Shown here: positions 11,584-40,640 of the stretch, in pieces
Position numbering within the stretch: the first letter of the stretch is position 1
How the letters are laid out: each line of letters opens with the position of its first letter
IMG/VR virus record: IMGVR_UViG_3300025098_000016
DNA: 64,000 nucleotides
Reading direction: 5' to 3' (one strand)
Source of the DNA: an uncultured virus (IMG/VR IMGVR_UViG_3300025098_000016)
Lineage: Duplodnaviria; Heunggongvirae; Uroviricota; Caudoviricetes
Notes under the pieces: model-generated
Told to the model about the DNA's origin: nothing
Database searches by the model: none
Seen by the model: the letters and a program-made list of their open reading frames with translations, nothing else
Program-made: the position numbers and the translations under genes

Positions 11584-11584
11584 T

Positions 11585-14943: not shown

Positions 14944-14959
14944 TTAAAAAGGAACTATT

Positions 14960-15874: not shown

Positions 15875-15877
15875 GAG

Positions 15878-15912
15878 TAAATAGTTATACTATAAACTAG
15901 GAGTATAACTAT
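15878..15912 (+). promoter_or_regulatory. Late motif TAAATA plus 11-bp hairpin occluding SD/start codon
   Basis: TAAATA 15878-83; perfect inverted repeat ATAGTTATACT (15881-91)/AGTATAACTAT (15902-12) overlapping SD AGGAG and the AT of ATG 15911. Confidence 0.7.
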
Positions 15913-16258
15913 GGACGAAGCACTAGAGAAGGCATTAGATTTTTCTAATTTTACTTCTACACTCAACGCCCAAAAACGTATATTGCATGAAAAGTATTTA
16001 GATGAACTAGTAATGTACTCTAATAATGGCATGTTTACAATTTCAAAAGAACTTTTGAATTTTTGTTTTATGCTAACTTCTACAAACATAAACAAAACTG
16101 TATTAATAGATAGTAATAGAACTCCTATTGAAATTAATGATGTTGAAGAATTTATGTTAAAAGCAACTCAACATTACACAGATGTAACTAGTAAGTACTT
16201 ACAAGAATATAAGATTCTTAGCACCAAACGTAATGTAGAAGGTTTAGTGGATGACTAA
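15911..16258 (+). CDS. Hypothetical protein, first gene of modification island
   Basis: 115 aa ORF, SD AGGAG. Confidence 0.6.
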   Translation: MDEALEKALDFSNFTSTLNAQKRILHEKYLDELVMYSNNGMFTISKELLNFCFMLTSTNINKTVLIDSNRTPIEINDVEEFMLKATQHYTDVTSKYLQEYKILSTKRNVEGLVDD

Positions 16259-17075
16259 TGGTGTACTATGCTTTGCACACAATAACGGAAAAGTAAATTA
16301 TATAAAGCAAGCAGAGTTTCTTGCAAAACGTGTAAAGCAACATTTGAATTTACCAACTACGTTAGTCACGTCTACTCCACACGGGCTAGACGACAACACA
16401 GTATTTGATCAAGTAATTGAAATAGCAGATGATAATAACAACGTAAAACGTTATTATAACGGCTCTTTACATCATGAAAGATTACCATTCAAAAATAATG
16501 ACAGAGTAAGAAGTTATGAATTATCTCCTTATGATACTACACTTGTTCTTGATACAGATTACATAATTTGTAATGATGTATTCAACAATGCATTTAATAG
16601 TACACACGATTTTCAAATATATAGGAACGGTATCGATTTATGTGATTGGCGTAAACATAAAGAATTTGATTACATTAATGATACAGGTATTCCTTTTTAT
16701 TGGGCAACTTGTTTTTGCTTTACAAAAACACAAGAAACAAAAATATTTTTTGACCTATTACAACACTTAGTAAGTAACTGGAAACATTATGATCACGTGT
16801 ATAATTTAGGAAGTAGAAACTTTAGAAATGATCATGTGTTTAGTATTGCTATACATATGATGAATGGATTTACAGATGGTAATTGGGCAAAAACTCTACC
16901 AGGCAAAATGTTTTATACATTAGATAGAGATATTGTAAAAACTATTAAAGATAATTCACTTACATTTTTACTACAAAAAGAAAACTATGTAGGAGAATAC
17001 ATTTTAGCATCAACAAAAGACTGTAATGTACATGTCATGAATAAGTTTAGTTTGGGAGAACTTATAAATGGATAA
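16251..17075 (+). CDS. GT-A (GT8-like) glycosyltransferase
   Basis: LSPYDTTLVLDTD (DxD) motif; paralog of the next gene. Confidence 0.6.
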   Translation: MTNGVLCFAHNNGKVNYIKQAEFLAKRVKQHLNLPTTLVTSTPHGLDDNTVFDQVIEIADDNNNVKRYYNGSLHHERLPFKNNDRVRSYELSPYDTTLVLDTDYIICNDVFNNAFNSTHDFQIYRNGIDLCDWRKHKEFDYINDTGIPFYWATCFCFTKTQETKIFFDLLQHLVSNWKHYDHVYNLGSRNFRNDHVFSIAIHMMNGFTDGNWAKTLPGKMFYTLDRDIVKTIKDNSLTFLLQKENYVGEYILASTKDCNVHVMNKFSLGELING

Positions 17076-17862
17076 GGGATATATTATGGTAGCTATGGGC
17101 GACGACTATGTACGCCAAGCATATTTGTGTGCTGTGAGCATTAAGAAAACACAGGCAATTAACAACGTATCAATAGTAACAAGTGACGCAGTTCCAGAAG
17201 AATATAAAAGTGTTTTCGATAAAATTATTGAAGTACCTTGGCACGACGACCCACAAAGTTTTTATATAACAGAACATCGTTGGAAAGTGTTTCATTTAAC
17301 TCCGTATGATGAAACAGTTGTACTAGATACTGATATGATATTTCTATCAGATATTTCGCACTGGTGGAAATACTTTGCACAAAAAAGTATAGGCTTTATT
17401 AGTAACGTAACAGACTATAGAGGAAATACAATTACAAATGACTACTATAGGAAAGCATTTACAGCAAATAACTTACCTAACATATATTGTGCTTTTCATT
17501 ATTTTAAGAAAGACAACACAGCATTAGATTATTATAAAGTATTGAATAGAGTATGTGATAATTATCAAAAGTATTATGAAGTATATGCCCCTAAGCAAAC
17601 ACCTACCTTAAGTAGTATGGATGTGAATCATGCTATTGCATTACTTGACAGTAATATAGATGATTATACTATTAATTCTGCATCGTTTGTACATATGAAA
17701 AGTAAAGTACAAGGATGGGATAACCCAACCGATACTTGGACTGATACTGTGCCATATTATATTAGTGACGAATTAAAAATTGGAAATTATACACAACACG
17801 GACTTTTTCATTATACTGAAAATAGTTTTTGTGAGGAGATGTTATGCAACATGTTAAAATAG
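17068..17862 (+). CDS. GT-A (GT8-like) glycosyltransferase
   Basis: LTPYDETVVLDTDMIF (DxD), FVHMK. Confidence 0.62.
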   Translation: MDKGYIMVAMGDDYVRQAYLCAVSIKKTQAINNVSIVTSDAVPEEYKSVFDKIIEVPWHDDPQSFYITEHRWKVFHLTPYDETVVLDTDMIFLSDISHWWKYFAQKSIGFISNVTDYRGNTITNDYYRKAFTANNLPNIYCAFHYFKKDNTALDYYKVLNRVCDNYQKYYEVYAPKQTPTLSSMDVNHAIALLDSNIDDYTINSASFVHMKSKVQGWDNPTDTWTDTVPYYISDELKIGNYTQHGLFHYTENSFCEEMLCNMLK

Positions 17863-18383
17863 ATACTCCGCAGTATGTTTGTTTTAATCAAAAGACTGGA
17901 GAAATTTTTAGTGTAGGACCTAGTATTGAGCCAGGCTATCAGTATGTTGAAGTTACTGAAGAAGAGATTGAGCCTATTAAAACTTTTAAAAAAAATATGA
18001 CCGATTATGTTGTAGCTTACAATCGAGTTGAAAAGGCATTTGTACTTAAAGAGAATATCTATATCGAACACGAAGCACAGTTTACACAGATCATGCCTGT
18101 AGATGAATCTGCAATGTATGATTTGCTTTTAACGGTTGACAATAAGGCTAAAAGATGTTATATTAGTACAGGTATAGAACTATTAGATACAATGAAAACA
18201 ACTAACGTAGATTTCCAAAAAGAAATTACTTTTAGTTTTACAAAGAAAGGCGATCCGCATGTATTATACGATATGATTACGTTTAATATTGCAGATCCAA
18301 AAGAACATACAATTAATATTAAAGATACGTATAGTATCTATGCAAGTAGTGATATGGCAACTTGTATGTATAAGGAATTATAA
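17844..18383 (+). CDS. Hypothetical protein
   Basis: 179 aa ORF overlapping both neighbours, SD GAGGAG. Confidence 0.55.
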   Translation: MQHVKIDTPQYVCFNQKTGEIFSVGPSIEPGYQYVEVTEEEIEPIKTFKKNMTDYVVAYNRVEKAFVLKENIYIEHEAQFTQIMPVDESAMYDLLLTVDNKAKRCYISTGIELLDTMKTTNVDFQKEITFSFTKKGDPHVLYDMITFNIADPKEHTINIKDTYSIYASSDMATCMYKEL

Positions 18384-19303
18384 TGAAAGTAAAAATTGCA
18401 GAAATAGATATAATTTATTTAAGTTATGACGAACCAAACGCTGATAAAAATTATGCAGACTTGTTAACTAAAGTTCCGTGGGCAAAGCGTGTACATGGTG
18501 TAGAAGGTTCTGATGCGGCACATAAAGCCTGTGCTGAACTTTCTGAAACAGATAGATTCATTACAGTAGACGGTGATAATACTATACGGCAAGATTTTAT
18601 TAATCAAGTATTAGACTTTGATGAACATACAGACTTAGAACATAGTGTAATTAGTTGGTGTGGTAGAAATTCTGTTAACGGATTGCTATATGGCAATGGA
18701 GGATTAAAATGCTGGCCAAAACAATATGTGTTAGATATGAAAACACACGAAAACGCTGATCCTAATAATAAACAAGCACAAGTAGACTTTTGTTGGGACT
18801 TACAGTATATCCAACAAAATAGTTGCTATTCAGATGTACATAATAACGAAACAGCACATCAGGCCTGGCGAGCAGGATTCCGTGAAGGTGTAAAAATGGC
18901 ACTTGATCAAGGAGTCAAACCAACTAAGGAAGAATTTTTAAACGGACATTGGAAGAATTTACACAGACTATGGATTTGGTTAATGGTTGGTGCTGATGCT
19001 AAAAACGGTAACTGGGCAATATTAGGTGCTAGAGAAGGCCTTAGTATGACAATGCTTAGTGATTGGGATTACGTACAAGTACGTGATTTTGAATATCTTA
19101 ATCAGCTTTGGGGCGGAAGAGACGAAATGCCTGCAGATGTTTTACACGATGAAATTTTTAATTATGGAAGCGAGTTAATTAATCAACTAGATTGCCCTAT
19201 TGCTATCCAACCTTTTACTGAAGAACAAAGCATGTTCTTTAAAACTGTTTATCAAAATCCTAGTAGAAGTAGTAATCAGCAGTTTATAGACAAGGAAAAA
19301 TAA
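18383..19303 (+). CDS. GT-A-like glycosyltransferase
   Basis: ITVDGD (DxD), N.L.YGNGGLK, AWRAGFREGVK; paralog of 20640. Confidence 0.55.
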   Translation: MKVKIAEIDIIYLSYDEPNADKNYADLLTKVPWAKRVHGVEGSDAAHKACAELSETDRFITVDGDNTIRQDFINQVLDFDEHTDLEHSVISWCGRNSVNGLLYGNGGLKCWPKQYVLDMKTHENADPNNKQAQVDFCWDLQYIQQNSCYSDVHNNETAHQAWRAGFREGVKMALDQGVKPTKEEFLNGHWKNLHRLWIWLMVGADAKNGNWAILGAREGLSMTMLSDWDYVQVRDFEYLNQLWGGRDEMPADVLHDEIFNYGSELINQLDCPIAIQPFTEEQSMFFKTVYQNPSRSSNQQFIDKEK

Positions 19304-20652
19304 TGCAACAACCGCAACTAATTGAGGTCAAAGAAAAATTAGATAAAGTAGGTTGTGGATTCTGTCTGGCTAAATGGACACAAGTAACTATTCATTTAGG
19401 ATCAGGATTAACGCACAGTTGTCATCATGTTAAAGCACATCCAATTGATTTAAACGAACTTGCAAAAAATCCTGGTACATTACATAACACTGGATTTAAA
19501 AAGAACGTAAGAAAACAGATGCTTAACAACGAGCGACCAAACGAGTGTGATTACTGTTGGCGTATTGAGGATAATACAGACGAATATAGTGATAGAGTTT
19601 TTAAAAGTAGCGATCCATTTAGTTGGCCAGATTTTGATACTATATCTAAGATGACTGGTGATGAAAACTTTTATCCTCGTTATGTTGAAGTAAGTTTTAG
19701 TAATGTTTGTAATTTTAAATGTGGATATTGTAGTCCTTCTTTTAGTAGTAAATGGGCTGACGAAATTAAAGAGCATGGCCCTTACACGTTCAAAGATACT
19801 AATTGGAGATATAATCAACCAGACGAACATCAAAAACAAATACCACAACGAGAAGCTAATCCGTATGTTGAAGCATTTTGGAAATGGTTCCCAGAAGCAG
19901 TAACACATATGCACACGTTTCGTATTACAGGTGGTGAACCTTTGATGAGCAAACATACTAATAGAGTAATAGAGTACTTGATGAATAATCCTCAACCTCA
20001 ATTAGAATTTTCTATAAACACAAATGGATGCCCTCCATTAGCAAACCAATGGAAAGAATTTGTAGATAAAATTAAAATTTTAGAAGATAATAATTGTATA
20101 CAAAGATTTGTTTTGTTCGTAAGTGCAGAAAGTAAAGGAGATCAAGCAGAATATAATAGATATGGTATGGACTGGACAATGTTTACAGACAATGTTAAGT
20201 ATTATCTAAAACAAGCAACAGGTAGTTTAGTGTTTATGAGTGCATTTAATGTGTTAAGTATTCCTACATTTTTACCTTTTCTTAAGTATGTCGCTAGACT
20301 TAAAGGCGGATACAAAAATGATATTATAGTAGATATACCTTATGTAAGAAGTCCAGGATTCTTAGATGCTAAAATTGCTACTAGTAATTTAATTCAAGAT
20401 TACTTACATCCGTGTATTCCTTATATGGAAGAAAACAATTTTAATGATAGAGAAAAGTCTCAAATGAAGCGTATTGTAAAAGACTTAGATGTAAGACAAG
20501 ACAATACTAAGTTCAAACAAGAGACAATTGAAGGTCGAAGAATGTTTTATGAATGGATACAACAATACGATAAACGACGAGATGTTAATTTTTTAGAAGT
20601 ATTCCCTCAAATGAAAGATTTTTACGAGGAGTGTAAAAAGTGCATGATATAA
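19303..20652 (+). CDS. Radical SAM protein with N-terminal auxiliary Fe-S (twitch/SPASM-like) domain
   Basis: CNFKCGYC, TGGEP, NTNG; N-terminal C..C/SCHH/CDYC. Confidence 0.85.
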   Translation: MQQPQLIEVKEKLDKVGCGFCLAKWTQVTIHLGSGLTHSCHHVKAHPIDLNELAKNPGTLHNTGFKKNVRKQMLNNERPNECDYCWRIEDNTDEYSDRVFKSSDPFSWPDFDTISKMTGDENFYPRYVEVSFSNVCNFKCGYCSPSFSSKWADEIKEHGPYTFKDTNWRYNQPDEHQKQIPQREANPYVEAFWKWFPEAVTHMHTFRITGGEPLMSKHTNRVIEYLMNNPQPQLEFSINTNGCPPLANQWKEFVDKIKILEDNNCIQRFVLFVSAESKGDQAEYNRYGMDWTMFTDNVKYYLKQATGSLVFMSAFNVLSIPTFLPFLKYVARLKGGYKNDIIVDIPYVRSPGFLDAKIATSNLIQDYLHPCIPYMEENNFNDREKSQMKRIVKDLDVRQDNTKFKQETIEGRRMFYEWIQQYDKRRDVNFLEVFPQMKDFYEECKKCMI

Positions 20653-21329
20653 TCTTTATAAGTTACTTTGAGCCAAATGCGGAACAAAATTTTGACGATT
20701 TGTACAATAGATTTAATACTGTTGGAGTATTTGGTGACAGAGTAAAGCGTGTTACTAATGTCAAAGGTATACACAATGCTCACGTTGAAGCGGCTAAACT
20801 TGTAAGAACTAGTTACTTCTATGTAGTTGACGGTGACGCAAAGGTCGTACAAGACTTCAAATTTGCTTATATAGCAAAGGAAAAGGATATTGTACATGTT
20901 TACCGTAGTGCTAATCCTATCAATAATTTAACGTATGGGTATGGCGGTGTAAAACTGTTACCTACAACACTAACACTTAACATGGACACAACTACTAATG
21001 ACATGACTACGAGTATTAGTGATAAGTTTAAGGTGATGAACGAAGTAAGTAACACCACAGCATTTAACACTGATCCTTTTAGTACTTGGAAAAGTGCTTT
21101 TAGAGAATGTACAAAATTAAGCAGTAAAACGATCAAAGGACAAAAAAATGACGAAACAGAAGAAAGACTACACATATGGACAACAGTTGGAGGGGATGTT
21201 CCCTTCGGCGATTACGCTATTGCAGGTGCTATTGCTGGCAGGGAGTTTGGGCTTTCTAACAAGTCTGATATTAAGTTAATTAATAATTTTGATTGGTTAA
21301 AGGAAAAATTTAATGAGCAATACAGTTAA
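20640..21329 (+). CDS. GT-A-like glycosyltransferase
   Basis: YVVDGD, NNLTYGYGGVK, WKSAFRECTK; paralog of 18383. Confidence 0.55.
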   Translation: MHDIIFISYFEPNAEQNFDDLYNRFNTVGVFGDRVKRVTNVKGIHNAHVEAAKLVRTSYFYVVDGDAKVVQDFKFAYIAKEKDIVHVYRSANPINNLTYGYGGVKLLPTTLTLNMDTTTNDMTTSISDKFKVMNEVSNTTAFNTDPFSTWKSAFRECTKLSSKTIKGQKNDETEERLHIWTTVGGDVPFGDYAIAGAIAGREFGLSNKSDIKLINNFDWLKEKFNEQYS

Positions 21330-21996
21330 TCTACTTAACGGATTAGAATATCTTTATCCTGAAAATAAAGTAGTTTCACAAATGAAGCGTACTCTTACTA
21401 TGTTTCCTGAAAGTGAAACTGCTATGGTAGATGCTTTTAGTTTAGGACAATTAGAAAGTAAACTGTGGCTTATTGAAAATTTACCCGACAAGTTAGGAAC
21501 TGTATTTGTTTGTGCAGGCTGGTATGGTACACTTGCAAGTTTTATGTTTGAACGTGCAAGAGACAAATTTGACAAAATACGTAGTTTTGATATTGATAGT
21601 AGTTGTGCATCTGTTGCCGATAATATGAATAGACCCTGGGTAATGGACGGGTGGCAATTTAAAGCAAGTACATTAGATATTCTTAATATGGAATATCCAA
21701 CTACACATACAACTTATAGAGCAGATGGCAGTAGTTTACAACTTACAGAAATGCCTGATACTATTATTAATACTAGTTGTGAACATATTAAAAATTTTGC
21801 AGATTGGTATGCAAAAATACCTAGTGGTAAGATGGTAATTTTACAGAGTAATAATTACTATGAAATTAAAGAACATGTCAACTGTGTTAAAGACATTTAC
21901 GAGTTTAAAGATATGGCACCGATGAATGAACTACATTATACAGGTCAGAAAGAGATGTCTAAATACACAAGATTTATGTTAATTGGAAGAAAATAA
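21313..21996 (+). CDS. Class I SAM-dependent methyltransferase-like protein
   Basis: Motif I-like VCAGWYG, acidic motif II SFDID, DTIINTSCEH. Confidence 0.55.
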   Translation: MSNTVNLLNGLEYLYPENKVVSQMKRTLTMFPESETAMVDAFSLGQLESKLWLIENLPDKLGTVFVCAGWYGTLASFMFERARDKFDKIRSFDIDSSCASVADNMNRPWVMDGWQFKASTLDILNMEYPTTHTTYRADGSSLQLTEMPDTIINTSCEHIKNFADWYAKIPSGKMVILQSNNYYEIKEHVNCVKDIYEFKDMAPMNELHYTGQKEMSKYTRFMLIGRK

Positions 21997-22304
21997 TGAG
22001 CGATAACATATATCCTAAATGCGAAAATGCAAGAAAATTATATATTACATCTAATAGCCAAGTGCGTCCTTGCTGTTGGTTAAGTGAATGGGAAGAAGTT
22101 TCAATGGATGAAAATTGGAATTTGAAAACCAATACTATAGAACATATTTTAGAAAATGAACTTTCTGCTTATGTTCAAGGGTTAAAAGAAAATCCTGAAA
22201 AATTTGCTTGCAAAATGTGTTATAGAAAGTGCAATCAACCTTTTACAGAAACAGCAAACCCTACACAGCAATATGTGATATTTGGAGATGAAGATGAAAC
22301 GTGA
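21996..22304 (+). CDS. Stand-alone SPASM-like Fe-S domain
   Basis: PKC..YIT...V.PCCW...C..C...C; aligns by eye with the N-terminus of 27578. Confidence 0.65.
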   Translation: MSDNIYPKCENARKLYITSNSQVRPCCWLSEWEEVSMDENWNLKTNTIEHILENELSAYVQGLKENPEKFACKMCYRKCNQPFTETANPTQQYVIFGDEDET

Positions 22305-26382: not shown

Positions 26383-26743
26383 TATAATTGTTTACGACAA
26401 AGACGGTAATACTCAAGAAGTTTGGGCTAACGATATGGTCAAAGCAGAAGAAGTAAATTTTGAAGGCTGGCTCTGTGGCATTGGCTTAGAAAGTATTGAC
26501 ATAAAAAGCAATGGAGATATTTACAGAGGCACGTGCAGGATAGGAGGTCCTATCGGACACATCGATGATGAAGTTTGGAATTTGCCTACAGACTTTATTG
26601 AGTGTAATAAGAATAGCTGTACTTGTGTAGCTGATATTAAAAGTACTAGGTATAAAGACCAAGAAACAAGAAACAAATTAGAAAGTAAAGTTAAACAAGT
26701 AGTAATAGGAAAGGGTGGAGATGAGAGTTCAAATAATTTTTGA
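26375..26743 (+). CDS. Stand-alone Cys-rich (SPASM-like) module
   Basis: FEGWLCGIG..C..LPT...C....CTCVAD; homologous to the N-terminus of 24127. Confidence 0.65.
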   Translation: MSDIIVYDKDGNTQEVWANDMVKAEEVNFEGWLCGIGLESIDIKSNGDIYRGTCRIGGPIGHIDDEVWNLPTDFIECNKNSCTCVADIKSTRYKDQETRNKLESKVKQVVIGKGGDESSNNF

Positions 26744-30002: not shown

Positions 30003-30009
30003 ATATAGA

Positions 30010-30023
30010 TAAGTATTTTTATG
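30010..30023 (+). promoter_or_regulatory. Late motif-N5-ATG (leaderless-type start)
   Basis: TAAGTA-TTTTT-ATG, no SD. Confidence 0.5.
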
Positions 30024-31597: not shown

Positions 31598-31601
31598 AAT
31601 A

Positions 31602-33835: not shown

Positions 33836-34497
33836 AAGATATAATTTTTACACCATTAGCAATTCCACCTATTCCGAATAAACAAAAAATATTAGATAGG
33901 TTCAATGCACCTGATTTTTATATTTGGTGGGATGAAGAAACATTATTAGGTGAAAAGGAAAATAATAATCCTTTAGGTAATCCGCAACAGTGGACAGATA
34001 AAGCAAAAGAAAATTATCCTGAGCTTATAGAATGGATCGAAACTTATATTCCTTGTGATGATTTTTACTATATTCGTATTGCAAGAGCTAAACATTCAAT
34101 ACCTCCACACATAGACGGTAATGCTGTTAAACCAACACATAAACATCATCTTGCTATTATGCCTGAAACATTGGAATATAATATGGCGCATGAACCTATT
34201 GGTTATCGTTTTGTTGTTGCAGGTAGCAAGGATAAAATGTATATGTGCAAAGACTATGATTATACAAAGGACATGTCTTGGCAACAAAAGCATAGATGTA
34301 TTGTGCCTGAAGAAACAGATGCGTTCTTAATACGCAACCAAGACCAAGCACATGGAGTTGAAGAAGATACTGAAGATAGACTAATAGGATTTATACTTGG
34401 TAAAGTTAATGCCAGGAAGCATTGGGATCTAATAGAAAAAAGCGTAAGTAAGTATAGTGATAAAGTTATAAGGAAACAAGATGTATTCAATGCATGA
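33832..34497 (+). CDS. Fe(II)/2OG-type oxygenase-like protein
   Basis: IPPHID...AHGV....R. Confidence 0.55.
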   Translation: MKDIIFTPLAIPPIPNKQKILDRFNAPDFYIWWDEETLLGEKENNNPLGNPQQWTDKAKENYPELIEWIETYIPCDDFYYIRIARAKHSIPPHIDGNAVKPTHKHHLAIMPETLEYNMAHEPIGYRFVVAGSKDKMYMCKDYDYTKDMSWQQKHRCIVPEETDAFLIRNQDQAHGVEEDTEDRLIGFILGKVNARKHWDLIEKSVSKYSDKVIRKQDVFNA

Positions 34498-35095
34498 TGG
34501 CGCAAATATTAGTGTACACCAACAAGTAGCCAAACGACTACAACCAAAAACGTGTGTAGAGATCGGAACTTATTATGGTGGCATCACATACAAGTTAAGT
34601 AAGATGCTCCCTGATAGTCATTTCTTTGCTGTGCAAAGTTATCACGATCATAAACTTAATCACATGCCCAATACTGACAGAGGCGAATATAGTATTGGTC
34701 AAGCAAGAGAAGATAAAAGTGAAGGGCTTGATAAGGACCTTAAAGAACAAGATTGGAAGCGTAGTGTTAAGAGACATTTTCCAGAAGAGTATCACGACTA
34801 TTTTGATTTTAATCTACTAGCAAAAACATTTGAAGACTGTAACAATGTAAGTATTATATTAGATACTAGTCCTTTTAAGTATGATTGGAAAATTGGATTT
34901 GATCTAGCAATATTTGATGTATCACCGTTGTTAGAAGAAAACGTAAAACAATTTAATTATTGGTGCAAGTACGGCAATCATCATGCTAACATACTTATGG
35001 GTGCATATAATCATCAACAAGAATTTTATGATTATGTAGACAAAAGATATAAAGCAGAAAAAATAGGAAATGATTATGTTCTCGTGTGCATATGA
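34481..35095 (+). CDS. SAM-dependent methyltransferase
   Basis: VEIGTYYGG motif I, FDLAIFD; SD AAGGA. Confidence 0.7.
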   Translation: MYSMHDGANISVHQQVAKRLQPKTCVEIGTYYGGITYKLSKMLPDSHFFAVQSYHDHKLNHMPNTDRGEYSIGQAREDKSEGLDKDLKEQDWKRSVKRHFPEEYHDYFDFNLLAKTFEDCNNVSIILDTSPFKYDWKIGFDLAIFDVSPLLEENVKQFNYWCKYGNHHANILMGAYNHQQEFYDYVDKRYKAEKIGNDYVLVCI

Positions 35096-35741
35096 ACTTA
35101 ACATAGACATCACACAAGTACGTGAAGAACTACAACATCTAAATAATCCTAAATACAAGTATGCAGGCTACGATGATATGTGCTTTTACGTATCAGACGA
35201 AACAGTAAAACAACAAGGTTGTGATGCTGTTGTAAGTTTCAAAGAAAAATTTAATAACGGTTTTGTAGATGGCATACGTTTTCTTAACATGTATCCAGAA
35301 CAAAAATATTTGCCCCACGTTGATTCCAATGAACAAGGATTTCATAAAGACATACCTATGGATGTACAACATCCTGGCAATGTAAATATTTTGTTAAGTA
35401 AACCAGTTGGTGATACCACAGTATGGTATATAGATCCTGACCTTAGGAAATTATGGCCTTGGGCATTTAGTAACAACGGAGATCTATTTCCTGATAATGT
35501 TAATAATTATATTACAAACGAAACCATGGGGCAAGATAGATCAACACTTCAACAAGTAGATAAATTTAAACTAACTGACAAAGCAACATTGTTTAATACG
35601 TCTGCACATCATACTATAATAAGTGAAGATGTAAATGAACCACGCTCTAGTGCATGTTTTATATTTTGGCCATACAATAGTTGGCAAGGTATAGTTGAAG
35701 CAGTAAGAGCAAAGGGATTATTGCATGACCGCATGGAATAA
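35070..35741 (+). CDS. Fe(II)/2OG-type oxygenase-like protein
   Basis: LPHVD...LFNTSAHH....PR. Confidence 0.6.
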   Translation: MIMFSCAYELNIDITQVREELQHLNNPKYKYAGYDDMCFYVSDETVKQQGCDAVVSFKEKFNNGFVDGIRFLNMYPEQKYLPHVDSNEQGFHKDIPMDVQHPGNVNILLSKPVGDTTVWYIDPDLRKLWPWAFSNNGDLFPDNVNNYITNETMGQDRSTLQQVDKFKLTDKATLFNTSAHHTIISEDVNEPRSSACFIFWPYNSWQGIVEAVRAKGLLHDRME

Positions 35742-36252
35742 AGAAAAAATCTTTATACATATTCCTAAGACAGGCGGAATAAGTATGACGTCTACAATGG
35801 GCAAAGTAAATATTAAACCACATGCACCTATATGTGATCCAACACTTCCTAAATTACCTAGTTTTACAGTAATAAGAAATCCATATGAACGTGCAGTTAG
35901 TTGGTGGAAGTATTCTAAACAATACGGAATTGATGTTGGATTTTTAGAATATTTGTATGTTTATTTTGACAAGCCATGGCCTAATTGGCGTAAACAATTT
36001 GAAGAATATACAACTACAACAGCAGATTTCTTTTTAGGAGAATTTAAACCTAGTATTCCTATGATGGATTATATAACAATTAATCATAAAATTGCAGTAG
36101 ATGAAATTATAAGATACGAAGATATGCAAATCCAAGAACGACAAAATGTGTCTAAGTTCAAAATAAATATTAATGAGGTACTCACACCAGAAGCAAAAAA
36201 CGTTATAGAACACTATTATCGTGTTGATTTGGAAAGTTTTGATTATGAATAA
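35725..36252 (+). CDS. Sulfotransferase (Sulfotransfer_2-like)
   Basis: 5'-PSB loop FIHIPKTGGIS and 3'-PB RNPYERAVSW; IRYED. Confidence 0.8.
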   Translation: MTAWNKEKIFIHIPKTGGISMTSTMGKVNIKPHAPICDPTLPKLPSFTVIRNPYERAVSWWKYSKQYGIDVGFLEYLYVYFDKPWPNWRKQFEEYTTTTADFFLGEFKPSIPMMDYITINHKIAVDEIIRYEDMQIQERQNVSKFKININEVLTPEAKNVIEHYYRVDLESFDYE

Positions 36253-36868
36253 AAAGCATTTACCTAGTATATACAACTATAATTTAAATATCGACTTAAA
36301 AAAATTACAAAACGACTGTGATAAATTAGCAGAAAAATTTGTTGATGTACGCACAGCAAATCCTATGCTGTGTATGAATCATGAAGATTTAGTTAAGAAT
36401 GTATACGACAACTTTGAACAGATAAACCTTACTACACCTAGTGAGATTTTACCGCACACAGCCAGCATTAAGGAGCGTCTAAGACGCCGAGAAGAACACC
36501 TTTATAATGTTCCTACTGACGATTATCCTGGTAGTTACTTTGAGCAAGTTATTACACAACTTAAAGCACCTGCAAGCCGTATAAGAATTACAAAACTTGC
36601 ACCAGGTAAAAACATACCATTTCATGTAGACTATGATGTAAGTTATGCAGTACGTTGTATTGTACCTATCTACGGAGATAACCAAGTTATAAATTTATTT
36701 AAAAGAGATGGCAAATTAGAAGCATATAATTTAGAAAATGGAAATGCTTACTTTCTAAATATAGGATATCCACATGCAGTTGTTAACATGAGTAGCAAGC
36801 CACGTATTGCTTTAATGTTTAGTTTAGATGGGACAGACGATATTAGTCATCTTTCCAACGGTTCCTAA
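36245..36868 (+). CDS. Asp/Asn beta-hydroxylase-like oxygenase
   Basis: RITKLAPG..IPFHVD...YFLNIGYPHAVVN....R. Confidence 0.75.
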   Translation: MNKKHLPSIYNYNLNIDLKKLQNDCDKLAEKFVDVRTANPMLCMNHEDLVKNVYDNFEQINLTTPSEILPHTASIKERLRRREEHLYNVPTDDYPGSYFEQVITQLKAPASRIRITKLAPGKNIPFHVDYDVSYAVRCIVPIYGDNQVINLFKRDGKLEAYNLENGNAYFLNIGYPHAVVNMSSKPRIALMFSLDGTDDISHLSNGS

Positions 36869-37361
36869 CTTCAGATGTTATAAATGGCCAACCACTAAGA
36901 TTAAGTCTTTGGCCACTACATGGTTCGACCCAGTGATCAAATCCTGTACGCATTATTACAAGCCTATTACGCTTTGGAAGTATACGCATATCTTCTGTAC
37001 ATAATTCGCCATCAGTCTCATCTGTAAGATAAAGCATCCATACCCAGTCTCCATAAACTTCTGGATCTTCTTTGTGCTTGCCTATGTGACTGCTAGGGGT
37101 AAACTTTTTGGCAAACAGTTGCATAGGTTCTAGATCCTGTGTAGGTATACTTGTGCCAATGTGTTCGCCTATTTCGCTCAACAACATTAGTCTATGGGGA
37201 CTAGTTCTAATGTTATTTTTTATCATTTGCCATTCGTATTCTGTATATTCGCCTACATGTGACCCTGTTTCACTGTCTAGTTGTAACAGTTCTCCTTTGC
37301 AAAGTTCATCTAGTTCTTGTAGATAATCCTCTTCAAAAATATCGTCAACTACTATAACCAT
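36843..37361 (-). CDS. Fe(II)/2OG oxygenase (prolyl-hydroxylase-like)
   Basis: HKE, MLYL, GEL, PKRNRLVI, H.V...R. Confidence 0.7.
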   Translation of the reverse strand: MVIVVDDIFEEDYLQELDELCKGELLQLDSETGSHVGEYTEYEWQMIKNNIRTSPHRLMLLSEIGEHIGTSIPTQDLEPMQLFAKKFTPSSHIGKHKEDPEVYGDWVWMLYLTDETDGELCTEDMRILPKRNRLVIMRTGFDHWVEPCSGQRLNLSGWPFITSEVRNRWKDD

Positions 37362-38097
37362 TTTCTTCCGCCCATTCTTTCCAAGTTGTGTTAGTATCCT
37401 CAATCCATTGATTGTTATGTTGTTTCCCTACACTATGAGGACCATTTATACTAGCCACGGCATGCAGTCTTACACTACGACAAGGAACTACAGCATGAGC
37501 TTTGCTTGTATTCAAAATAAAAGACTCTCCAGGCTTACAAAATACAGGACCGTCAGCAGTTTCTATGCTACTTGTAATTCCTTCACCGTCATTTAATAAA
37601 ACATGATGATATCTAAATCCTGTATCACCGTCAGTGTGCCAAATAAATCTGCAATCGTGTTCCATATAGCTAAACCAAAAATTGCTACGCAAATTAGGAA
37701 TAACTGCGTCGATTTCATTACAATGTTTTTTTCCTAATTCTTTAAAGTCTTTATGAACAAAACAATAAATGTTTAAATGCTGATCCGGTTCTATTCTAGC
37801 ATTTTCATGTCTTAGTTTAACATAATACAAAACTCCTGAATCATAGTGATATTCATCCACATAATCTAACCAGTTCTCTTCATCCTTCATATCAAATCCT
37901 CTAAGTCCGTTGTATATGTCACGTTTATCCATAAGTTTTTCTGACCGACGCATATACACATTAAGATAAGTTTGATCACCAAAATTAAGATCTGGCCAAA
38001 TTTCTTCAGTCATATCATAAAATAACTTTGTAAGTTCTTTAGTGTTGTTTACAGTGTCACAAAGAACAAATGCTTCTTTCATATGTTGATCAAACAT
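37345..38097 (-). CDS. Asp/Asn beta-hydroxylase-like oxygenase
   Basis: WHTD..FRYH...FILNTSKAHAV...RLH. Confidence 0.65.
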   Translation of the reverse strand: MFDQHMKEAFVLCDTVNNTKELTKLFYDMTEEIWPDLNFGDQTYLNVYMRRSEKLMDKRDIYNGLRGFDMKDEENWLDYVDEYHYDSGVLYYVKLRHENARIEPDQHLNIYCFVHKDFKELGKKHCNEIDAVIPNLRSNFWFSYMEHDCRFIWHTDGDTGFRYHHVLLNDGEGITSSIETADGPVFCKPGESFILNTSKAHAVVPCRSVRLHAVASINGPHSVGKQHNNQWIEDTNTTWKEWAEENGYSS

Positions 38098-38540
38098 TCT
38101 ACTAACTCCTCTATCGGTTGCTCAAAGCAAATTTGAAAATTATATCTAGGGTATTCATTATTATTAATATAGTGAGGTAACTGTGTGTTAAACAATATAG
38201 GTTTTTCATGTGTAACAGTTGGACCGTCTATAAAATGGCAAGGTGCATAATCTTTATGCCAAAACAATGGAACAATTAATACAGTGTTCCTCTTCCATTT
38301 AGTATTATCTACATGTGCAACTACCTTTGCATTTGCAGGTTGATGTACAAACATTGTATAACAATTATAGTTAAATCTTTTAAAATAAGGTAAATCTAGG
38401 TCCCAACACAAGTTACCATCTTTTTTACCGCTTATGGTATCGTAACCAAGAAAATTTGCTTCAGGACTCTTACATAAATTTTCTAAAAAATTTACATCTT
38501 CTGAAGAAATAAGATCTGTTGTTTCATAAAACGGAATCAT
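38079..38540 (-). CDS. Fe(II)/2OG-type oxygenase-like protein
   Basis: AHVD...LFNTQLPH....PR; ATGA overlap. Confidence 0.6.
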   Translation of the reverse strand: MIPFYETTDLISSEDVNFLENLCKSPEANFLGYDTISGKKDGNLCWDLDLPYFKRFNYNCYTMFVHQPANAKVVAHVDNTKWKRNTVLIVPLFWHKDYAPCHFIDGPTVTHEKPILFNTQLPHYINNNEYPRYNFQICFEQPIEELVECLINI

Positions 38541-39202
38541 GTATATATTTGTCTTTTCATTTCTATTATTGCATCCATACACATCTCTATATTCATTACA
38601 AGCCATATACTGTCGCTAGAGCCCGGATTAAATAACGAGTGCGTTTTTAAAGTATTTAAGAAATAAATTCCACCTTCTATCCAATTAAGTACATTGTGAT
38701 TTTTATAGTCGCCATGCATCCAATAAAAATTTGGAGGGTTTACATTTTTTATAGGTACAACTAATCTAAACGTTTCGGGAGACCGGCTCATTGCTTCATC
38801 AACATGAGGAGGAAAGTATCCACCAGGTGGAATTTTAATAAACTGTGTTCTTCCTAAAAAGTTCTTCCAAGGAGTTAATATTCTTTGTAATTCCTGACTT
38901 GAATTATATAAAGGTGTAGGAATTTTAAAATCTAATTCGCTATATAGTGTCACCTTCGACTTTAAAGCCTCTTCCTTCTGTTGGTCAGATTTTCTTAAAC
39001 TGCCTTTACTTTGATTAAATTTTCCGTCTAACGATGTAACTGCTAAAGAATATCTTGGAATATGAGGTTTATTAGGATTATATTGAACCCATTCTGTATT
39101 ATATTGTTCTATACTGGTTAGTATTTGTTTTGTACTAACTGAAGTTGTTAATTTAACAAAGTCACCGTTACTGATTAATGCACTAAATATTTCCCAACTC
39201 AT
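38537..39202 (-). CDS. Asp/Asn beta-hydroxylase-like oxygenase (paralog of 30021)
   Basis: LGRTQFIKIPPGGYFPPHVD...YFLNTLKTH. Confidence 0.7.
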   Translation of the reverse strand: MSWEIFSALISNGDFVKLTTSVSTKQILTSIEQYNTEWVQYNPNKPHIPRYSLAVTSLDGKFNQSKGSLRKSDQQKEEALKSKVTLYSELDFKIPTPLYNSSQELQRILTPWKNFLGRTQFIKIPPGGYFPPHVDEAMSRSPETFRLVVPIKNVNPPNFYWMHGDYKNHNVLNWIEGGIYFLNTLKTHSLFNPGSSDSIWLVMNIEMCMDAIIEMKRQIYT

Positions 39203-39650
39203 TTGTTACCTCCTTTACTGCATCTTGTATAGTTATATCTGTTTCTAATTCTGGGTTATTGTCTAATATAGGATTTTCTTTTGTAAATCCCCATGTAAGA
39301 TAAGGTTGCTTAAATTTTTTACTCATATGTTCTAGTGTAATTTTATTGTCCTTTTTTATAATGTCCCAATGATCTGTAACTTTTGCTTCTGTGATTTTAC
39401 TACCAATGTTTATACATTTAATTTTGTTACGATACGCTCTTATACTAATATTAACTTGAGCATTTCCAATATCTGCACAATTTATCATACAATCCAGCTT
39501 ATCTTCAAATATTTTCTCCACATCAAAATTTAAGTCATATCCTGTTGCTCTACTATAACCTTTAATACTGTGTCCTAGCTCTTTGCACTCATTAGCAATA
39601 TGTTTGCCAAAGCCGCTTGTATGACCAGTTATGCCAATCGTAAGACCCAT
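39183..39650 (-). CDS. Short-chain dehydrogenase-like Rossmann protein (short)
   Basis: IGITGHTSGFG, MINCA, INIGS; SD GGAGGA. Confidence 0.6.
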   Translation of the reverse strand: MGLTIGITGHTSGFGKHIANECKELGHSIKGYSRATGYDLNFDVEKIFEDKLDCMINCADIGNAQVNISIRAYRNKIKCINIGSKITEAKVTDHWDIIKKDNKITLEHMSKKFKQPYLTWGFTKENPILDNNPELETDITIQDAVKEVTNELGNI

Positions 39651-40084
39651 TGCAGTCCTCCTAAAGGAATTTCTTCTTGGGTAATTTTCCAATTATAAAA
39701 ACTATGTTCTTGAAACCATTCAAGCAGTTTAGGATTTTCTTCCCTGCTTACCCATATATCTTTATAGCCCATATCAAGTGCCATCTTTGTACTAAAACCT
39801 AATGTAGCATTTCCTCTTTGCAGATCATCTTTCATTGTACCCCAATCATAATTTCGATCACGAGTATGACGGCTCATAATTCTAATGCCGCCGTTGTATT
39901 CTGGTCTTGCAATACCAGCACTATAATAAATTAAATGAGGATCCCAACCCATGCGGGCAAACTTTGTATGTTCAAACAAAGGCCACTTGCTATAGTTATC
40001 TGCATGTTTGTGTCCTTGTGTTTTTTCAAACAGTTCTTTAATGTCCTCTATGTGAGGTTCAATCTCTTCTAAACGCCATTTCAT
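39629..40084 (-). CDS. Hypothetical protein, possibly GNAT-like
   Basis: 151 aa; weak acyltransferase-like pattern (RG...L...ALDMGY..IWV). Confidence 0.35.
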   Translation of the reverse strand: MKWRLEEIEPHIEDIKELFEKTQGHKHADNYSKWPLFEHTKFARMGWDPHLIYYSAGIARPEYNGGIRIMSRHTRDRNYDWGTMKDDLQRGNATLGFSTKMALDMGYKDIWVSREENPKLLEWFQEHSFYNWKITQEEIPLGGLQWVLRLA

Positions 40085-40640
40085 GATGATCTTTATGGTT
40101 TCCTTCGAACGGTGCGATTAAATTTACCCAAATATTATTAATCGGTCCTTTACTGTCATGCCCCCAAAAGTTCAATGCGCCAAAGCCGAAGTAGGCTAGT
40201 GCGTAAATTATTGCTAATACTACAAGTGCGTTGAATCCAAATACCAGTGTTAGTAGTATTGCGTTTGTAATGTAAATTAAATTTCTATGTTTATGAAAGA
40301 AAACTACTCTAGGATTTGTAATTATATCCTTTAAGAATTTACGTGGTATTCTTTCTACTCTCCATAGACTAAACAATATTGAATACCAAGGTTGATATTT
40401 TGCACTATGCGGATCTTTTGGTGTATCTGCATATACATGGTGCATACGATGTACACCTACCCAACCTAGCGGACTTCTGTTACCACAAAGCAATCCGCAG
40501 TATAGCATTACTATTTCTTGCCAAGGCTTTGCAGAAAATTCATTGTGAGAAAAATATCTGTGATATCCATACGTAATGCCAATAGTGACAATTAGCATAT
40601 AGGCTAGATAAGAGAATAGAATAATATATAGTATTTGCAT
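40059..40640 (-). CDS. Membrane fatty-acid desaturase (delta-9-like)
   Basis: Three His boxes HRYFSH, HRMHH (DTPKDPHS), HKDHH; transmembrane segments. Confidence 0.88.
   Translation of the reverse strand: MQILYIILFSYLAYMLIVTIGITYGYHRYFSHNEFSAKPWQEIVMLYCGLLCGNRSPLGWVGVHRMHHVYADTPKDPHSAKYQPWYSILFSLWRVERIPRKFLKDIITNPRVVFFHKHRNLIYITNAILLTLVFGFNALVVLAIIYALAYFGFGALNFWGHDSKGPINNIWVNLIAPFEGNHKDHHEMAFRRD

Follow-up and report, generated by a model that had tools for sequence, protein, structure and literature searches.

A fibre-flanked island of glycosyltransferases, radical SAM enzymes and oxygenases in an uncultured marine phage, tentatively read as a glycan-tailoring locus

Bacterial O-antigen and capsule serotype loci have conserved flanks, a replaceable middle and recurring enzyme classes. 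In mycobacteriophages, Freeman et al. reportedly described in 2023 virion glycosylation operons in which soluble glycosyltransferases lie beside structural genes; these are said to hold only a few glycosyltransferases and to decorate the C-termini of capsid and tail-tube proteins. In the chlorovirus PBCV-1, a structural protein of the capsid carries an unusual glycan that virus-encoded cytoplasmic GT-A enzymes assemble. Pelagimyophages and cyanomyophages carry a hypervariable island, the host recognition cluster (HRC; Zaragoza-Solas et al. 2020, PMC7029224), and in the accessible text of that study its authors favour modification of the host O-chain.

Here we describe an island in a window of 64,000 nucleotides from an uncultured marine giant phage, a lytic virus of a jumbo T4-superfamily branch (polymerase 45–50% identical to those of Phosso and Atu_ph07). 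Islands of this kind have already been described, as the HRC of pelagimyophages (PMC7029224, accessible text): both are large, non-syntenic, within the structural region and behind a giant VrlC-type gene, with tail fibres, GT8 glycosyltransferases and radical SAM cassettes that differ among close relatives. Our island differs in its phage lineage, in a right border formed by an Mtd_N fibre and then early-type genes rather than by gp14, and in a conserved 7–8-gene head, N-twitch arrays and about 10 oxygenases, which the accessible text does not mention; the preferred target, the host O-chain there, also differs from ours. The mycobacteriophage operons, by description, likewise place soluble phage glycosyltransferases by structural genes, an equivalent mode if fibres are the acceptor here, but are without radical SAM or oxygenase arrays. 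The PBCV-1 system belongs to a eukaryotic virus and has no radical SAM tailoring; its A64R (PDB 2p72/2p73) is among the top Foldseek matches of island protein g5 (E 2e-4), but with a TM-score of only 0.27–0.37 and 15% identity. The island shares conserved flanks and an exchangeable middle drawn from identical enzyme classes with O-antigen and capsule loci, but is carried by a lytic phage between fibre genes, and no flippase, polymerase, chain-length regulator, exporter or Gtr-type membrane protein was seen among its 35 proteins.

Table 1. Features of the island and its surroundings, by position in the window
Feature	Position or start	Strand	Remark
Giant virion structural protein, 2955+ aa	3..8870	+	left flank; open at window start
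Four fibre-type genes	9502..15874	+	tail-fibre PHROGs, paralogy
S/T/N-rich 304-aa protein	14960..15874	+	always before cassette
Intergenic spacer with GTAAATAGTTATAC	15875..15910	+	putative start of cassette transcription unit
Island	15911..40640		two layers
Head	15911..21996
g1, 115 aa	15911..16258	+	helix-hairpin-helix-hairpin-helix layout, prefoldin-like lead
g2 + g3, two GT8-like (glycogenin-type) GT-A glycosyltransferases	16251..17862	+	profile match
g4, 179-aa conserved protein	17844..18383	+	family in 15 loci
g5, glycosyltransferase of uncatalogued family	18383..19303	+	GT-A domain + helical C-terminal domain
g6, N-terminal-twitch radical SAM enzyme (NF033640)	19303..20652	+	family score
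g7, shorter g5 paralogue (GT-A)	20640..21329	+	sequence paralogy
g8, class-I methyltransferase-fold protein	21313..21996	+	end of extended core; family in 20 loci
Payload	21996..40640
CxxxCxxC radical SAM genes of head and payload	19303, 22282, 22946, 24127, 25062, 27578, 32315
Proximal payload, g9–g18	21996..29304	+	five radical SAM genes
Proximal radical SAM genes	22282, 22946, 24127, 25062, 27578	+
Separate twitch/SPASM-like modules	21996, 26366	+
PP-loop protein; 288-aa protein of no assigned family; nitroreductase	25750; 26715; 28612	+
Distal payload, g19–g28	29301..36868	+
Cupin/2OG-type proteins	29301, 30021, 33832, 35070, 36221	+
TauD-like; PLP-like; B12 radical SAM	30728; 31575; 32315	+
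Methyltransferase-like; sulfotransferase-like	34481; 35725	+
Minus-strand payload, g29–g35	36843..40640	-	same direction as Mtd_N fibre gene, which lies upstream
2OG oxygenase; cupin-like	36843; 37345, 38079, 38537	-
Short SDR-like; without family; membrane desaturase-like	39183; 39629; 40059	-
341-aa fibre-type protein, Mtd N-terminal domain	40674..41734	-	right boundary; Pfam Mtd_N E 8e-11
Nucleotide-sugar genes outside island	59227..61096	-	possible precursor supply

The island's 35 ORFs (28 on the plus and 7 on the minus strand, about 25 kb) overlap at 32 of 34 junctions, the other two being gaps of 8 and 18 nt, which bears out the tightly overlapping block of about 35 genes first noticed in this DNA. 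Most encode soluble enzymes, hydrophobic segments being found in only one protein, and G+C is 0.30–0.35 vs 0.36–0.38 for the fibre genes. The giant left-flank protein matches phrog_10938 ('virion structural protein', E 5e-85), and its counterpart at the matching place in the cultured Ralstonia phage RsoM2USA is ORF361, a 2541-aa structural protein. Three fibre-type proteins (9502–11583, 11585–13426 and 13456–14940) have a common N-terminal domain of about 300 aa and are paralogous at 33–34%. Serine, threonine and asparagine make up 26–35% of the fibre proteins vs a window mean of 19.6%; such a composition is common in fibres and is no evidence of glycosylation.

We kept 80 viral loci for comparison, and in the 35 that carry the head (type-A loci) it lies, with gene order kept, behind fibre genes; the protein encoded at 14960 has family members in 28 of the 35. 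A complete 364-kb phage record likewise contains the head, and RsoM2USA has g1–g3 and g5–g8 at 31–47% identity. All four GT-A-like enzymes of the original prediction are supported. For g2 and g3, the profile of their family (A2) matches glycogenin-1 (GT8) in the PDB (E 1.6e-7, profile positions 10–108), with D101 and D103 of the DxD nearly invariant. The profile of g5 had no match in the PDB, while its AF2 model (pLDDT 90.8) has a GT-A fold in residues 1–155, closest by VIA to B4GALNT1 (Z 11.1, rmsd 3.0, 141 aligned), STIV A197 (Z 10.6), ThuS (9.9) and SunS (9.3). Its best Foldseek matches are ThuS, SunS and A64R, all at E ~2e-4 and low TM-score (0.27–0.37), and the DxD at D63 and D65 is invariant. 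This DxD is shared by g7, which is 29% identical to g5 over 240 aa (E 6e-23) and aligns with it (alignment A1). g8 is found in RsoM2USA at 31%, and its homologue in the relative G002 matches Spermine_synth (E 3e-6). No match to g4 was found in Pfam, PHROG or NCBIfam. g1 occurs in 26 of the 35 type-A loci and in RsoM2USA (35% identity); its AF2 model (pLDDT 91.5) has no winged-helix layout and gave no Foldseek match at E <= 0.001, and its top VIA match, prefoldin 1fxk_A (Z 7.6, rmsd 5.2, 96 aligned), falls under the decisive level.

Of the 35 island proteins 7 have the CxxxCxxC motif, vs 0 of the 45 other window ORFs. All seven match Pfam Radical_SAM and five exceed the gathering score, the exceptions being 19303 (29.1 vs 29.5) and 22282 (21.6). 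The predicted set of seven, one of them B12-binding, is thereby borne out: 32315 is of the B12 C-methyltransferase type (B12-binding E 9e-4), with 162 bits against the KedN5 family cut-off of 700. g6 matches NCBIfam NF033640 (N_Twi_rSAM, twitch domain-containing radical SAM protein) at 289.4 bits vs a cut-off of 170, which the other six miss. The likeness lies in this score and in four N-terminal cysteines plus CxxxCxxC; C21, C40, C82, C85 and C136/C140/C143 are invariant across 32 sequences, and 620 g6-related stretches occur in IMG/VR. To our knowledge this family has been named but has no tested function. The two free Fe-S modules were found as separate cysteine-rich proteins: 21996 (weak SPASM match, E 0.003) resembles the N-terminus of 27578, and 26366 that of 24127 (E 5e-11). 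Such split twitch and radical SAM gene pairs are kept together across phages and Bdellovibrionia chromosomes. Four of the enzymes (22946, 24127, 25062 and 27578) have weak NCBIfam matches to peptide maturases, e.g. WgkB, PapB, CefB and DarE, all far under the family cut-offs.

About 10 oxygenases had been predicted, and seven have support beyond the motif: 30728 (TauD, E 3e-25) and 36221 (Asp_Arg_Hydrox) by Pfam, 36843 marginally under the Pfam cut-off for 2OG-FeII_Oxy_3, 30021 and 38537 by paralogy, 37345 by hhalign (80% probability) and 35070 by an Atlas lead; 29301, 33832 and 38079 show HxD...H alone. The nitroreductase (E 6e-20), desaturase (40.3 bits vs 29.7, three His boxes) and PP-loop (SGGADS motif and QueC-like C-terminus) calls are firm, and the TauD-like call holds too. 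The remaining classes are present as weaker candidates: the sulfotransferase (20 bits vs 22; a paralogue in a relative has 31.9 bits), the SDR (E 0.007), the PLP enzyme (an Atlas lead) and two methyltransferases with motif I, one with the Spermine_synth-matching homologue given above. The desaturase-like protein, a membrane protein, suggests a lipid substrate.

Close relatives differ by whole cassettes. DNA homology to G002 covers 9299–21317 and resumes exactly at 40674, and that to G004 covers 9335–21999 and resumes from 29553; the breakpoints coincide with gene ends and the flanking fibres are 85–97% identical. The stretch 21996–29304 is swapped for unrelated DNA in both relatives. Genes of 29301–36868 are common to G004 at 46–95% aa identity, except 35725, whose sole counterpart in G004 is a distant match (23%) on the other strand, and genes of 36843–40640 at 45–100%; both sets are absent from G002. 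In one seawater run the relatives' summed depth was 92–316 over fibres and head, and that of the window's payload 0–10 in most bins. Alternative payloads draw on radical SAM, B12 radical SAM, nitroreductase-like, Asp/Arg-hydroxylase-like, methyltransferase and sulfotransferase classes, and one combines a DegT sugar aminotransferase with a carbamoyltransferase. Across the relatives' cassettes we found DegT (277 bits), carbamoyltransferase, RmlC, epimerase/dehydratases and UDP-glucose dehydrogenase. A second architecture, GT7+LamG, GT2 and methyltransferase followed by the g6 radical SAM family, also sits behind tail-fibre genes (6 of 18 upstream proteins match tail-fibre PHROGs and one more a virion structural family). 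Linkage to structural genes in relatives, named beforehand as decisive, thus holds in both architectures. Bdellovibrio-type chromosomes carry the same set of radical SAM, GT-A and methyltransferase genes, with no recognised fibre gene alongside; bacterial homologues adjoin GT2, GT4 and carbamoyltransferase genes.

The window has two copies of the strict T4-type TATAAATA where 12 are expected, both directly upstream of flanking fibre genes (13422–13429, plus; 41727–41734, minus). Ahead of g1, the only such signal found in the window is a conserved NTAAATAGTTATAC motif about 27 nt upstream, and in the window, as in its 8 closest relatives, NTAAATA precedes the start codon by 25–29 nt. The looser TAA(A/G)TA, taken originally as the entry signal, is uninformative by itself because it occurs 131 times in the window. 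The island, in which no consensus sigma70 promoter had been noticed, shows no excess of sigma70-like matches (100 vs 101.3 expected); perfect 12/12 sites are confined to the right flank. At the equivalent place in 10 of 24 related cassettes there is instead a sigma70-type promoter, TTGAC(A/T)-N-TAnnnT, which suits early transcription with a host-directed role no less than virion decoration. A TAAATA-type motif before g1 does not by itself establish late expression, and early transcription, named beforehand as counting against the prediction, is hinted at in those relatives. The parts of the original prediction that find support are a coherent set of tailoring genes lacking a scaffold synthase, its placement between fibre genes, sugar chemistry, and a conserved glycosyltransferase core with a payload replaced wholesale, as foreseen in the comparison of relatives proposed with it.

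The island product is most likely a heavily edited sugar decoration. We tentatively favour a phage-encoded cytoplasmic locus for building and tailoring a glycan, with a strain-specific product and the phage's own fibres as the most likely acceptor. Using nucleotide sugars, the head would build a conserved sugar stem, which the payload would then edit, and, as the weakest step, the stem may be carried by the fibre proteins encoded on either side. Since phages with almost identical fibres exchange the payload as a cassette, the product would be strain-specific, like a serotype; the head is conserved across very different presumed hosts, which favours a phage-encoded acceptor. Peptide and capsid glycosyltransferases (ThuS, SunS, A64R) among the low-TM neighbours of g5 are in keeping with this, while the absence of an unambiguous sugar-nucleotide enzyme from the window's own payload, where the SDR, PLP and sulfotransferase calls are weak, speaks against it, as do the desaturase, the Bdellovibrio-type set with no recognised fibre gene, the sigma70-type promoters of related cassettes and the preference of the pelagimyophage authors for the host O-chain. 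Remodelling of the host envelope is a live rival, if a rather unlikely one: the soluble enzymes would modify the host surface polysaccharide during infection at the level of its sugar precursors or lipid-linked units, blocking adsorption of competing phages or changing grazer recognition, and the payload would track host glycan types. It is how pelagimyophage and cyanomyophage authors read such islands in the accessible text (PMC7029224, PMC12801897), GT8 being best known for lipopolysaccharide synthesis (PMC7029224), and the sigma70-type promoters in 10 of 24 lineages, the desaturase and the bacterial gene neighbours suit it too. Against this, head order is identical from marine phages to a Ralstonia phage, whose host acceptors should differ, both architectures are linked to fibre genes, and the island has no Gtr-type protein, flippase or polymerase.

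Asp/Arg-hydroxylase-type cupins and SPASM/twitch radical SAM enzymes act on proteins too in other systems, which also speaks against the favoured reading. A RiPP-like route is improbable, in which the twitch/SPASM and B12 radical SAM enzymes (the latter as methyltransferase), Asp/Asn-hydroxylase-type cupins and nitroreductase-fold protein modify side chains of fibres or small peptides and glycosyltransferases then add sugars to the created residues. The maturase and Asp_Arg_Hydrox matches and the likeness of g5 to the glycocin peptide glycosyltransferases ThuS and SunS suit it, and prefoldin-like g1 could, as a lead from its model, hold an unfolded substrate; but the maturase matches all miss their cut-offs, neither a precursor peptide nor an RRE-type domain was recognised, g1 having no winged helix, and relatives' cassettes encode sugar-nucleotide enzymes. 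It is just as doubtful that there is no single pathway, the fibre module having gathered unrelated accessory genes in a plasticity zone with only the head as functional unit. Wholesale turnover and lower G+C would fit, the QueC-like PP-loop protein could serve with FolE and QueE of the right flank, and the desaturase gene may have a lipid role, but alternative payloads use identical enzyme classes, junctions overlap, and twitch and radical SAM pairs travel as units. Hypermodification of phage DNA bases by the island's glycosyltransferases and its tailoring enzymes is very improbable. Phage glycosyltransferases are known to glycosylate DNA (cited in the accessible part of PMC12619734), and 7-deazaguanine-type FolE (50185–50874) and QueE-like (49287–50312) genes lie near the QueC-like one; the fibre linkage is fixed in both architectures, however, the head is present in bacterial chromosomes too, and Pfam, PHROG and NCBIfam searches of the island revealed no hydroxymethylase, kinase or DNA-binding module.

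Sugar chemistry, as in the favoured glycan-tailoring reading, is backed both by the relatives' sugar-nucleotide enzymes and by genes at 59227–61096, which by their sequence could supply precursors to the island. They encode cytidylyltransferase-like, epimerase/dehydratase and UDP-glucose/GDP-mannose dehydrogenase proteins (Pfam E 2e-13, 6e-23 and 3e-23), and upstream of them the gap contains a TATAAT-type -10 element.

The island at 15911-40640 contains 35 ORFs, 28 on the (+) strand and 7 on the (-) strand, which converge at approximately 36.85 kb, and 32 of the 34 junctions between them overlap. The original prediction was of a tightly packed block of tailoring enzymes between virion genes; ORF, Pfam, NCBIfam, profile and structure evidence confirms the island and largely upholds the list of enzymes. 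The seven radical SAM proteins are all present: the CxxxCxxC motif occurs in seven island proteins and in none of the 45 other ORFs of the window, and all seven match Radical_SAM. One of these, g6, belongs fully to the N-terminal-twitch radical SAM family NF033640, and an alignment of 32 sequences of the g6 family shows C136, C140 and C143, as well as C21, C40, C82 and C85, to be invariant. None of the other six reaches the NF033640 cut-off. The expected single B12-binding radical SAM protein is g23, in which the B12-binding match (E 9e-4) is under the Pfam cut-off and precedes the Radical_SAM domain, the layout of a class B (cobalamin-dependent) radical SAM methyltransferase. The best NCBIfam match of g23 is KedN5-type (E 2e-47); membership of that family was rejected, the score being 162 bits against a cut-off of 700.

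Features of the window discussed in the text (single numbers are gene starts; bit scores are for NF033640)
Feature	Position (nt)	Strand	Evidence or content
14960 protein, fibre-type	14960-15874		T-rich strand DEAVTATTTST near C-terminus, residues ~268-282
g2, g3	16251, 17068		GT-A, glycogenin profile
g5	18383		GT-A, model
g6, radical SAM	19303-20652		289.4 bits, cut-off 170
g7	20640		GT-A, paralogue of 18383
Fe-S module	21996		
Radical SAM	22282		15.5
Radical SAM	22946		155.1
Radical SAM	24127		32.1
Radical SAM	25062		36.3
PP-loop protein	25750-26382		QueC-like layout, SGGADS N-terminal, Cys-rich C-terminus
Fe-S module	26366		
Radical SAM	27578		24.6
TauD/TfdA-like protein	30728-31597		
g23, B12 radical SAM	32315		B12-binding residues 57-123, Radical_SAM 164-328; not listed for NF033640
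Candidate oxygenases	29301, 33832, 38079		motif
Mtd_N fibre gene	40674-41699	-	
Non-coding gaps	43000-43317, 45851-46081		318 nt, 231 nt
DUF2201 metallopeptidase/VWA-like protein and AAA ATPase	43318-45850	-	adjoining genes
Sigma70 promoters	44639-44667, 48786-48814, 50920-50948	-	11/12, 12/12, 12/12; intergenic gaps
GTP cyclohydrolase I and QueE-like radical SAM gene	49287-50874		
Sugar-nucleotide genes	59227-61096		cytidylyltransferase-like, epimerase/dehydratase, UDP-glucose/GDP-mannose dehydrogenase
gp43-type DNA polymerase	61308-63980	-	
Hairpin before g1 homologue, related loci	L020:5790-5835, L021:5795-5841, L081 upstream of 11388		perfect

The two proteins first read as free Fe-S modules are present and are more specific than could be seen from the motifs. 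Paralogy within the window shows that 21996 and 22282 jointly correspond to the single protein 27578, and that 25062 and 26366 jointly correspond to 24127. The related viral record G002 has a SPASM-like gene of 119 aa before a radical SAM gene, and 118-aa and 250-aa genes of the 25062/26366 type adjoin in two Bdellovibrionia loci, L153 (917-kb contig) and L154 (56-kb contig). Because the pairs are kept as units in G002, L153 and L154, the split twitch/SPASM and radical SAM genes are two-gene enzymes rather than products of decay.

The four proposed GT-A glycosyltransferases were also recovered. The profile of the g2/g3 family matches glycogenin (E 1.6e-7) over only ~100 N-terminal positions, its DxD is nearly invariant, and no Pfam family matches at E <= 0.01. 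The AF2 model of g5 (pLDDT 90.8) has a GT-A domain; with VIA it gave Z 11.1 to B4GALNT1, 10.6 to STIV A197, 9.9 to ThuS and 9.3 to SunS, and its top Foldseek matches were ThuS, SunS and PBCV-1 A64R, at low TM-scores. The best match of the g5 family profile to PDB sequences had an E of 0.97, which is not meaningful. The nitroreductase, desaturase-like, PP-loop and TauD-like oxygenase assignments are firm (Pfam), while those of the sulfotransferase, SDR, PLP enzyme and methyltransferases stay tentative. Approximately ten oxygenases had been proposed, of which seven are backed by evidence beyond the motif and three are candidates by the motif itself. That all ten form one family was rejected, since an iterated HMM stopped at 30021, 36221 and 38537 and hhalign added only 37345 (80%). 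When the TauD/TfdA-like protein is aligned with TfdA (5bke), WHANQ stands opposite WHSD and HxD reads H-A-N, which places an Asn at the expected iron-ligand Asp position; the distal His aligns. A phmmer search of g14 against the PDB returned nothing.

The first eight genes of the island (g1-g8, the head) recur widely. The g6 family was found in 620 related stretches of uncultured viruses, and architectures were counted in the best 80 of these. The window's architecture (type A) accounts for 35 of the 80 loci, in which fibre genes are followed by a 14960-type protein, g1, two GT8-like genes, g4, g5, the radical SAM gene, g7 and often g8. A 14960-type fibre gene precedes the cassette in 28 of these 35 loci and in the window. 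Type B (38 loci) has the same radical SAM family behind different genes, namely a methyltransferase, a GT2, a 65-aa protein and two or three GT7+LamG enzymes, and followed by epimerase/dehydratases, RmlC, UDP-glucose dehydrogenase, carbamoyltransferase, GDSL and TPP enzymes. Type B also lies behind tail-fibre genes, with 6 of 18 upstream proteins matching tail-fibre PHROGs and one more matching a virion structural family; seven loci belong to neither type. The only cultured phage with the head is the Ralstonia jumbo phage RsoM2USA, where ORFs 347-354 follow the order of the head. Identity is 31-47% for g1-g3 and g5-g8, and every one of these ORFs is annotated as hypothetical; the passages seen of the RsoM2USA paper do not discuss these ORFs (PMC8504454). 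Glycosyltransferase genes adjoin structural genes in the window, in 28 of the 35 type A loci, in RsoM2USA and in type B loci. In several type B loci (L036, L044, L032 and others) each GT7 galactosyltransferase-like enzyme bears a concanavalin/LamG-type domain.

Comparison of flanks and content across relatives bears out the proposal of a conserved glycosyltransferase-bearing head and a variable payload, as seen in G002, in the related record G004 and in the 35 of 80 loci. G002 and G004 keep the window's flanks, with fibres 85-97% and right-flank genes 85-96% identical; the Mtd_N protein is the most variable fibre, at 57-73% identity between relatives. DNA homology to G002 covers 9299-21317 (end of g7) and resumes from 40674 (end of the Mtd_N fibre gene), the window's intervening 19.4 kb being swapped for 17.9 kb of other genes. 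These encode a DegT/DnrJ/EryC1 sugar aminotransferase (277 bits), a carbamoyltransferase, a class IV aminotransferase, methyltransferases, a B12 radical SAM protein and four other radical SAM proteins, together with a weak nitroreductase-like match and an IMPDH-like gene. Homology to G004 extends to 21999 (end of g8), breaks until 29553 and then continues with small indels. The G004 break region holds other radical SAM paralogues, eight of which were scanned, and a ninth across the locus join matches 24127. In G006 (L021), a complete phage record of 364 kb, homologues of window genes 41752 onward stand immediately behind the head, so that the window's ~21.3-41.7 kb is additional. Contigs of relatives from one seawater run reach a summed depth of 92-316 over the fibres and head (13.0-21.7 kb); over the window's payload most bins stand at 0-10 and a single bin at 34.5. 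This pattern, in which conserved flanks enclose a middle that can be replaced by genes of the same enzyme classes, is by analogy that of a serotype locus.

The reading of these genes with the best support is a locus that builds and tailors a glycan, and the island's radical SAM enzymes appear to act on sugars. This reading is favoured because unambiguous sugar-nucleotide enzymes recur in the cassettes of relatives, and the phage has sugar-nucleotide genes of its own in the right flank. Counting against it, the window's own payload has no unambiguous sugar-nucleotide enzyme, and several payload families act on proteins or lipids elsewhere. For peptide maturation, no RiPP precursor peptide or RRE domain was recognised in the island next to the twitch/SPASM radical SAM genes, and the peptide-maturase matches of the island radical SAM proteins are far under the NCBIfam cut-offs. 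The model of g1, a helix-hairpin-helix-hairpin-helix, gave no support to a role as a RiPP recognition element; its likeness to prefoldin (Z 7.6) is too slight to carry a conclusion. Components of Gtr-type O-antigen modification (GtrA, GtrB, GtrC, membrane acyltransferases) had no Pfam match in the island.

Since hydrophobic segments were found only in the desaturase-like protein among island proteins, and no flippase, polymerase or exporter was seen in the island by Pfam and hydrophobic-segment scan, the chemistry of the glycan locus is probably cytoplasmic, and its product would either stay on an intracellular acceptor or use host export. The acceptor we favour would be the phage's own fibres, because in two architectures the head consistently follows fibre genes and because it is conserved between phages of very different presumed hosts. 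The decoration system originally proposed is partly supported: a tailoring locus with sugar links stands, and the virion as its target is what we infer. We put forward tentatively, and would lean against it if pressed, that marine giant phages carry 'glycotypes', in which a replaceable radical-SAM-rich cassette, lying between conserved fibre genes, gives a strain-specific, heavily edited sugar coat on virion fibres, a viral counterpart of O-antigen serotypes, through sugar radical chemistry of a catalogued, unstudied family common to predatory Bdellovibrio-type bacteria. The T-x-T-x-T pattern in the T-rich strand of the 14960 protein is kept in distant homologues; its VTATTTST may be a modification (glycosylation) site or a plain structural beta-strand.

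Bacterial homologues of g6 at 35-46% identity are mostly in records titled Bdellovibrionales, Bacteriovoracaceae and Halobacteriovoraceae. Some adjoin g5-like, g8-like, GT2, PP-loop and further radical SAM genes, and others adjoin housekeeping genes. Neither an exporter nor a fibre gene was recognised in the bacterial loci L144 and L153, where many neighbours have no family.

Virion glycosylation has reportedly been measured in mycobacteriophages by Freeman et al. in 2023, as cited in PMC12619734 and PMC12801897. It has also been measured for PBCV-1, according to PDB entry titles. Unlike the window island, both systems are without radical SAM arrays. The nearest published system is the host recognition cluster (HRC) of pelagimyophages and cyanomyophages, a hypervariable island that follows VrlC, carries tail fibres, GT8 enzymes and cassettes of radical SAM genes, and is read by its authors as modifying the host O-chain (PMC7029224). 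Like the HRC, the window island is placed within the structural region and immediately follows a giant virion gene and tail-fibre genes, is non-syntenic in content between the close relatives G002 and G004, and has GT8-like and seven radical SAM genes; unlike the HRC, its other side is the Mtd_N fibre and not the neck gene gp14. A 2025 cyanomyovirus paper classes similar genes as cell-wall and 'antibiotic' genes (PMC12801897). Islands of this type having been published for pelagimyophages, this one is no first sighting; it represents a variant of a kind already described and biochemically unexplored. What the window adds are breakpoints of cassette replacement, exact to the gene, between phages whose fibres are near-identical, the promoter-class switch before the cassette, the two-gene twitch and radical SAM enzymes, and the oxygenase-rich payload.

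If the product is on fibres, marine phage particles would carry strain-specific glycans, with a bearing on host range, escape from host or grazer recognition and the sticking of virions to particles. Wherever the product sits, untested radical SAM chemistry is concentrated in the locus, with seven radical SAM genes in the window and up to eight within 21 kb in related loci. The question is testable because the conserved eight-gene head is also in one cultured phage.

The absence of a consensus sigma70 promoter from the island holds, with 100 matches against 101 expected and the best (11/12) inside g4. The strict T4-type TATAAATA is strongly depleted in the window (2 copies, 12 expected), and both copies are intergenic, one upstream of the fibre gene 13456 and the other upstream of the Mtd_N fibre gene, the first gene of the minus-strand block. 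A motif that functions as a late promoter would be expected to show such avoidance and placement. Upstream of g1 there is only GTAAATA / GTAAATAGTTATAC and no full TATAAATA. All nine cassettes of the clade to which the window belongs keep GTAAATAGTTATAC; at its spot, 20-26 nt before the start codon, 10 of 24 related cassettes have TTGAC(A/T) and TAnnnT with a spacer between them. Because a sigma70-type site replaces GTAAATAGTTATAC in these ten, we consider the cassette to be its own transcription unit with a lineage-dependent promoter class. With predicted promoters differing between lineages, 'late' should not be assumed as a property of the system, and early expression would fit a host-directed role at least as well. 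Two metatranscriptome runs hold ~5% of sampled words, with contigs over the fibre genes (X22) or over the head at 90-95% likeness (X23); such libraries can contain DNA and the contigs give no timing, so they are not evidence of expression. In three related loci a perfect hairpin of the CCTAGCAT...ATGCTAGG type stands before the g1 homologue, and the spacers of L020, L021 and L081 there have no recognisable promoter.

Judging by its genes, the window is from a giant phage of the T4 superfamily, its DNA polymerase having 49.5% identity to that of Sinorhizobium phage Phosso and 45.5% to that of Agrobacterium phage Atu_ph07. The left 15.9 kb encodes a virion protein of >2955 aa, identified as VrlC by phrog_10938 only, and four fibre-type genes. 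To the right of the island the Mtd_N fibre is followed by small unknown genes, the DUF2201/AAA pair and early-type genes with sigma70 promoters, and in the right 22 kb genes for replication, nucleotides and sugar nucleotides lie downstream of textbook sigma70 promoters; these sites probably mark an early-type region abutting the island. G+C across 16001-40000 is 0.30-0.35; it is higher in the fibre genes (0.37-0.38) and over most of the right flank. The whole island had no megablast match among 50,697 phage records. The DNA is marine: 11 of the 24 listed runs, all labelled marine metagenomes, contain at least half of the sampled words of a 10-kb probe. The island is present at 100% identity in two other viral records, L001 and G001, and is therefore no assembly chimera; G001, the nearest record, is a 100% identical copy over 20 kb.

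No Rfam family reached the gathering score anywhere in the window, including the two non-coding gaps beside the DUF2201/AAA pair. The DUF2201 protein carries the PHROGs label 'HNH endonuclease' without Pfam support. The GTP cyclohydrolase I and QueE-like pair in the right flank suggests a 7-deazaguanine pathway, and the PP-loop protein of the island could be a member of either that pathway or the island's own.
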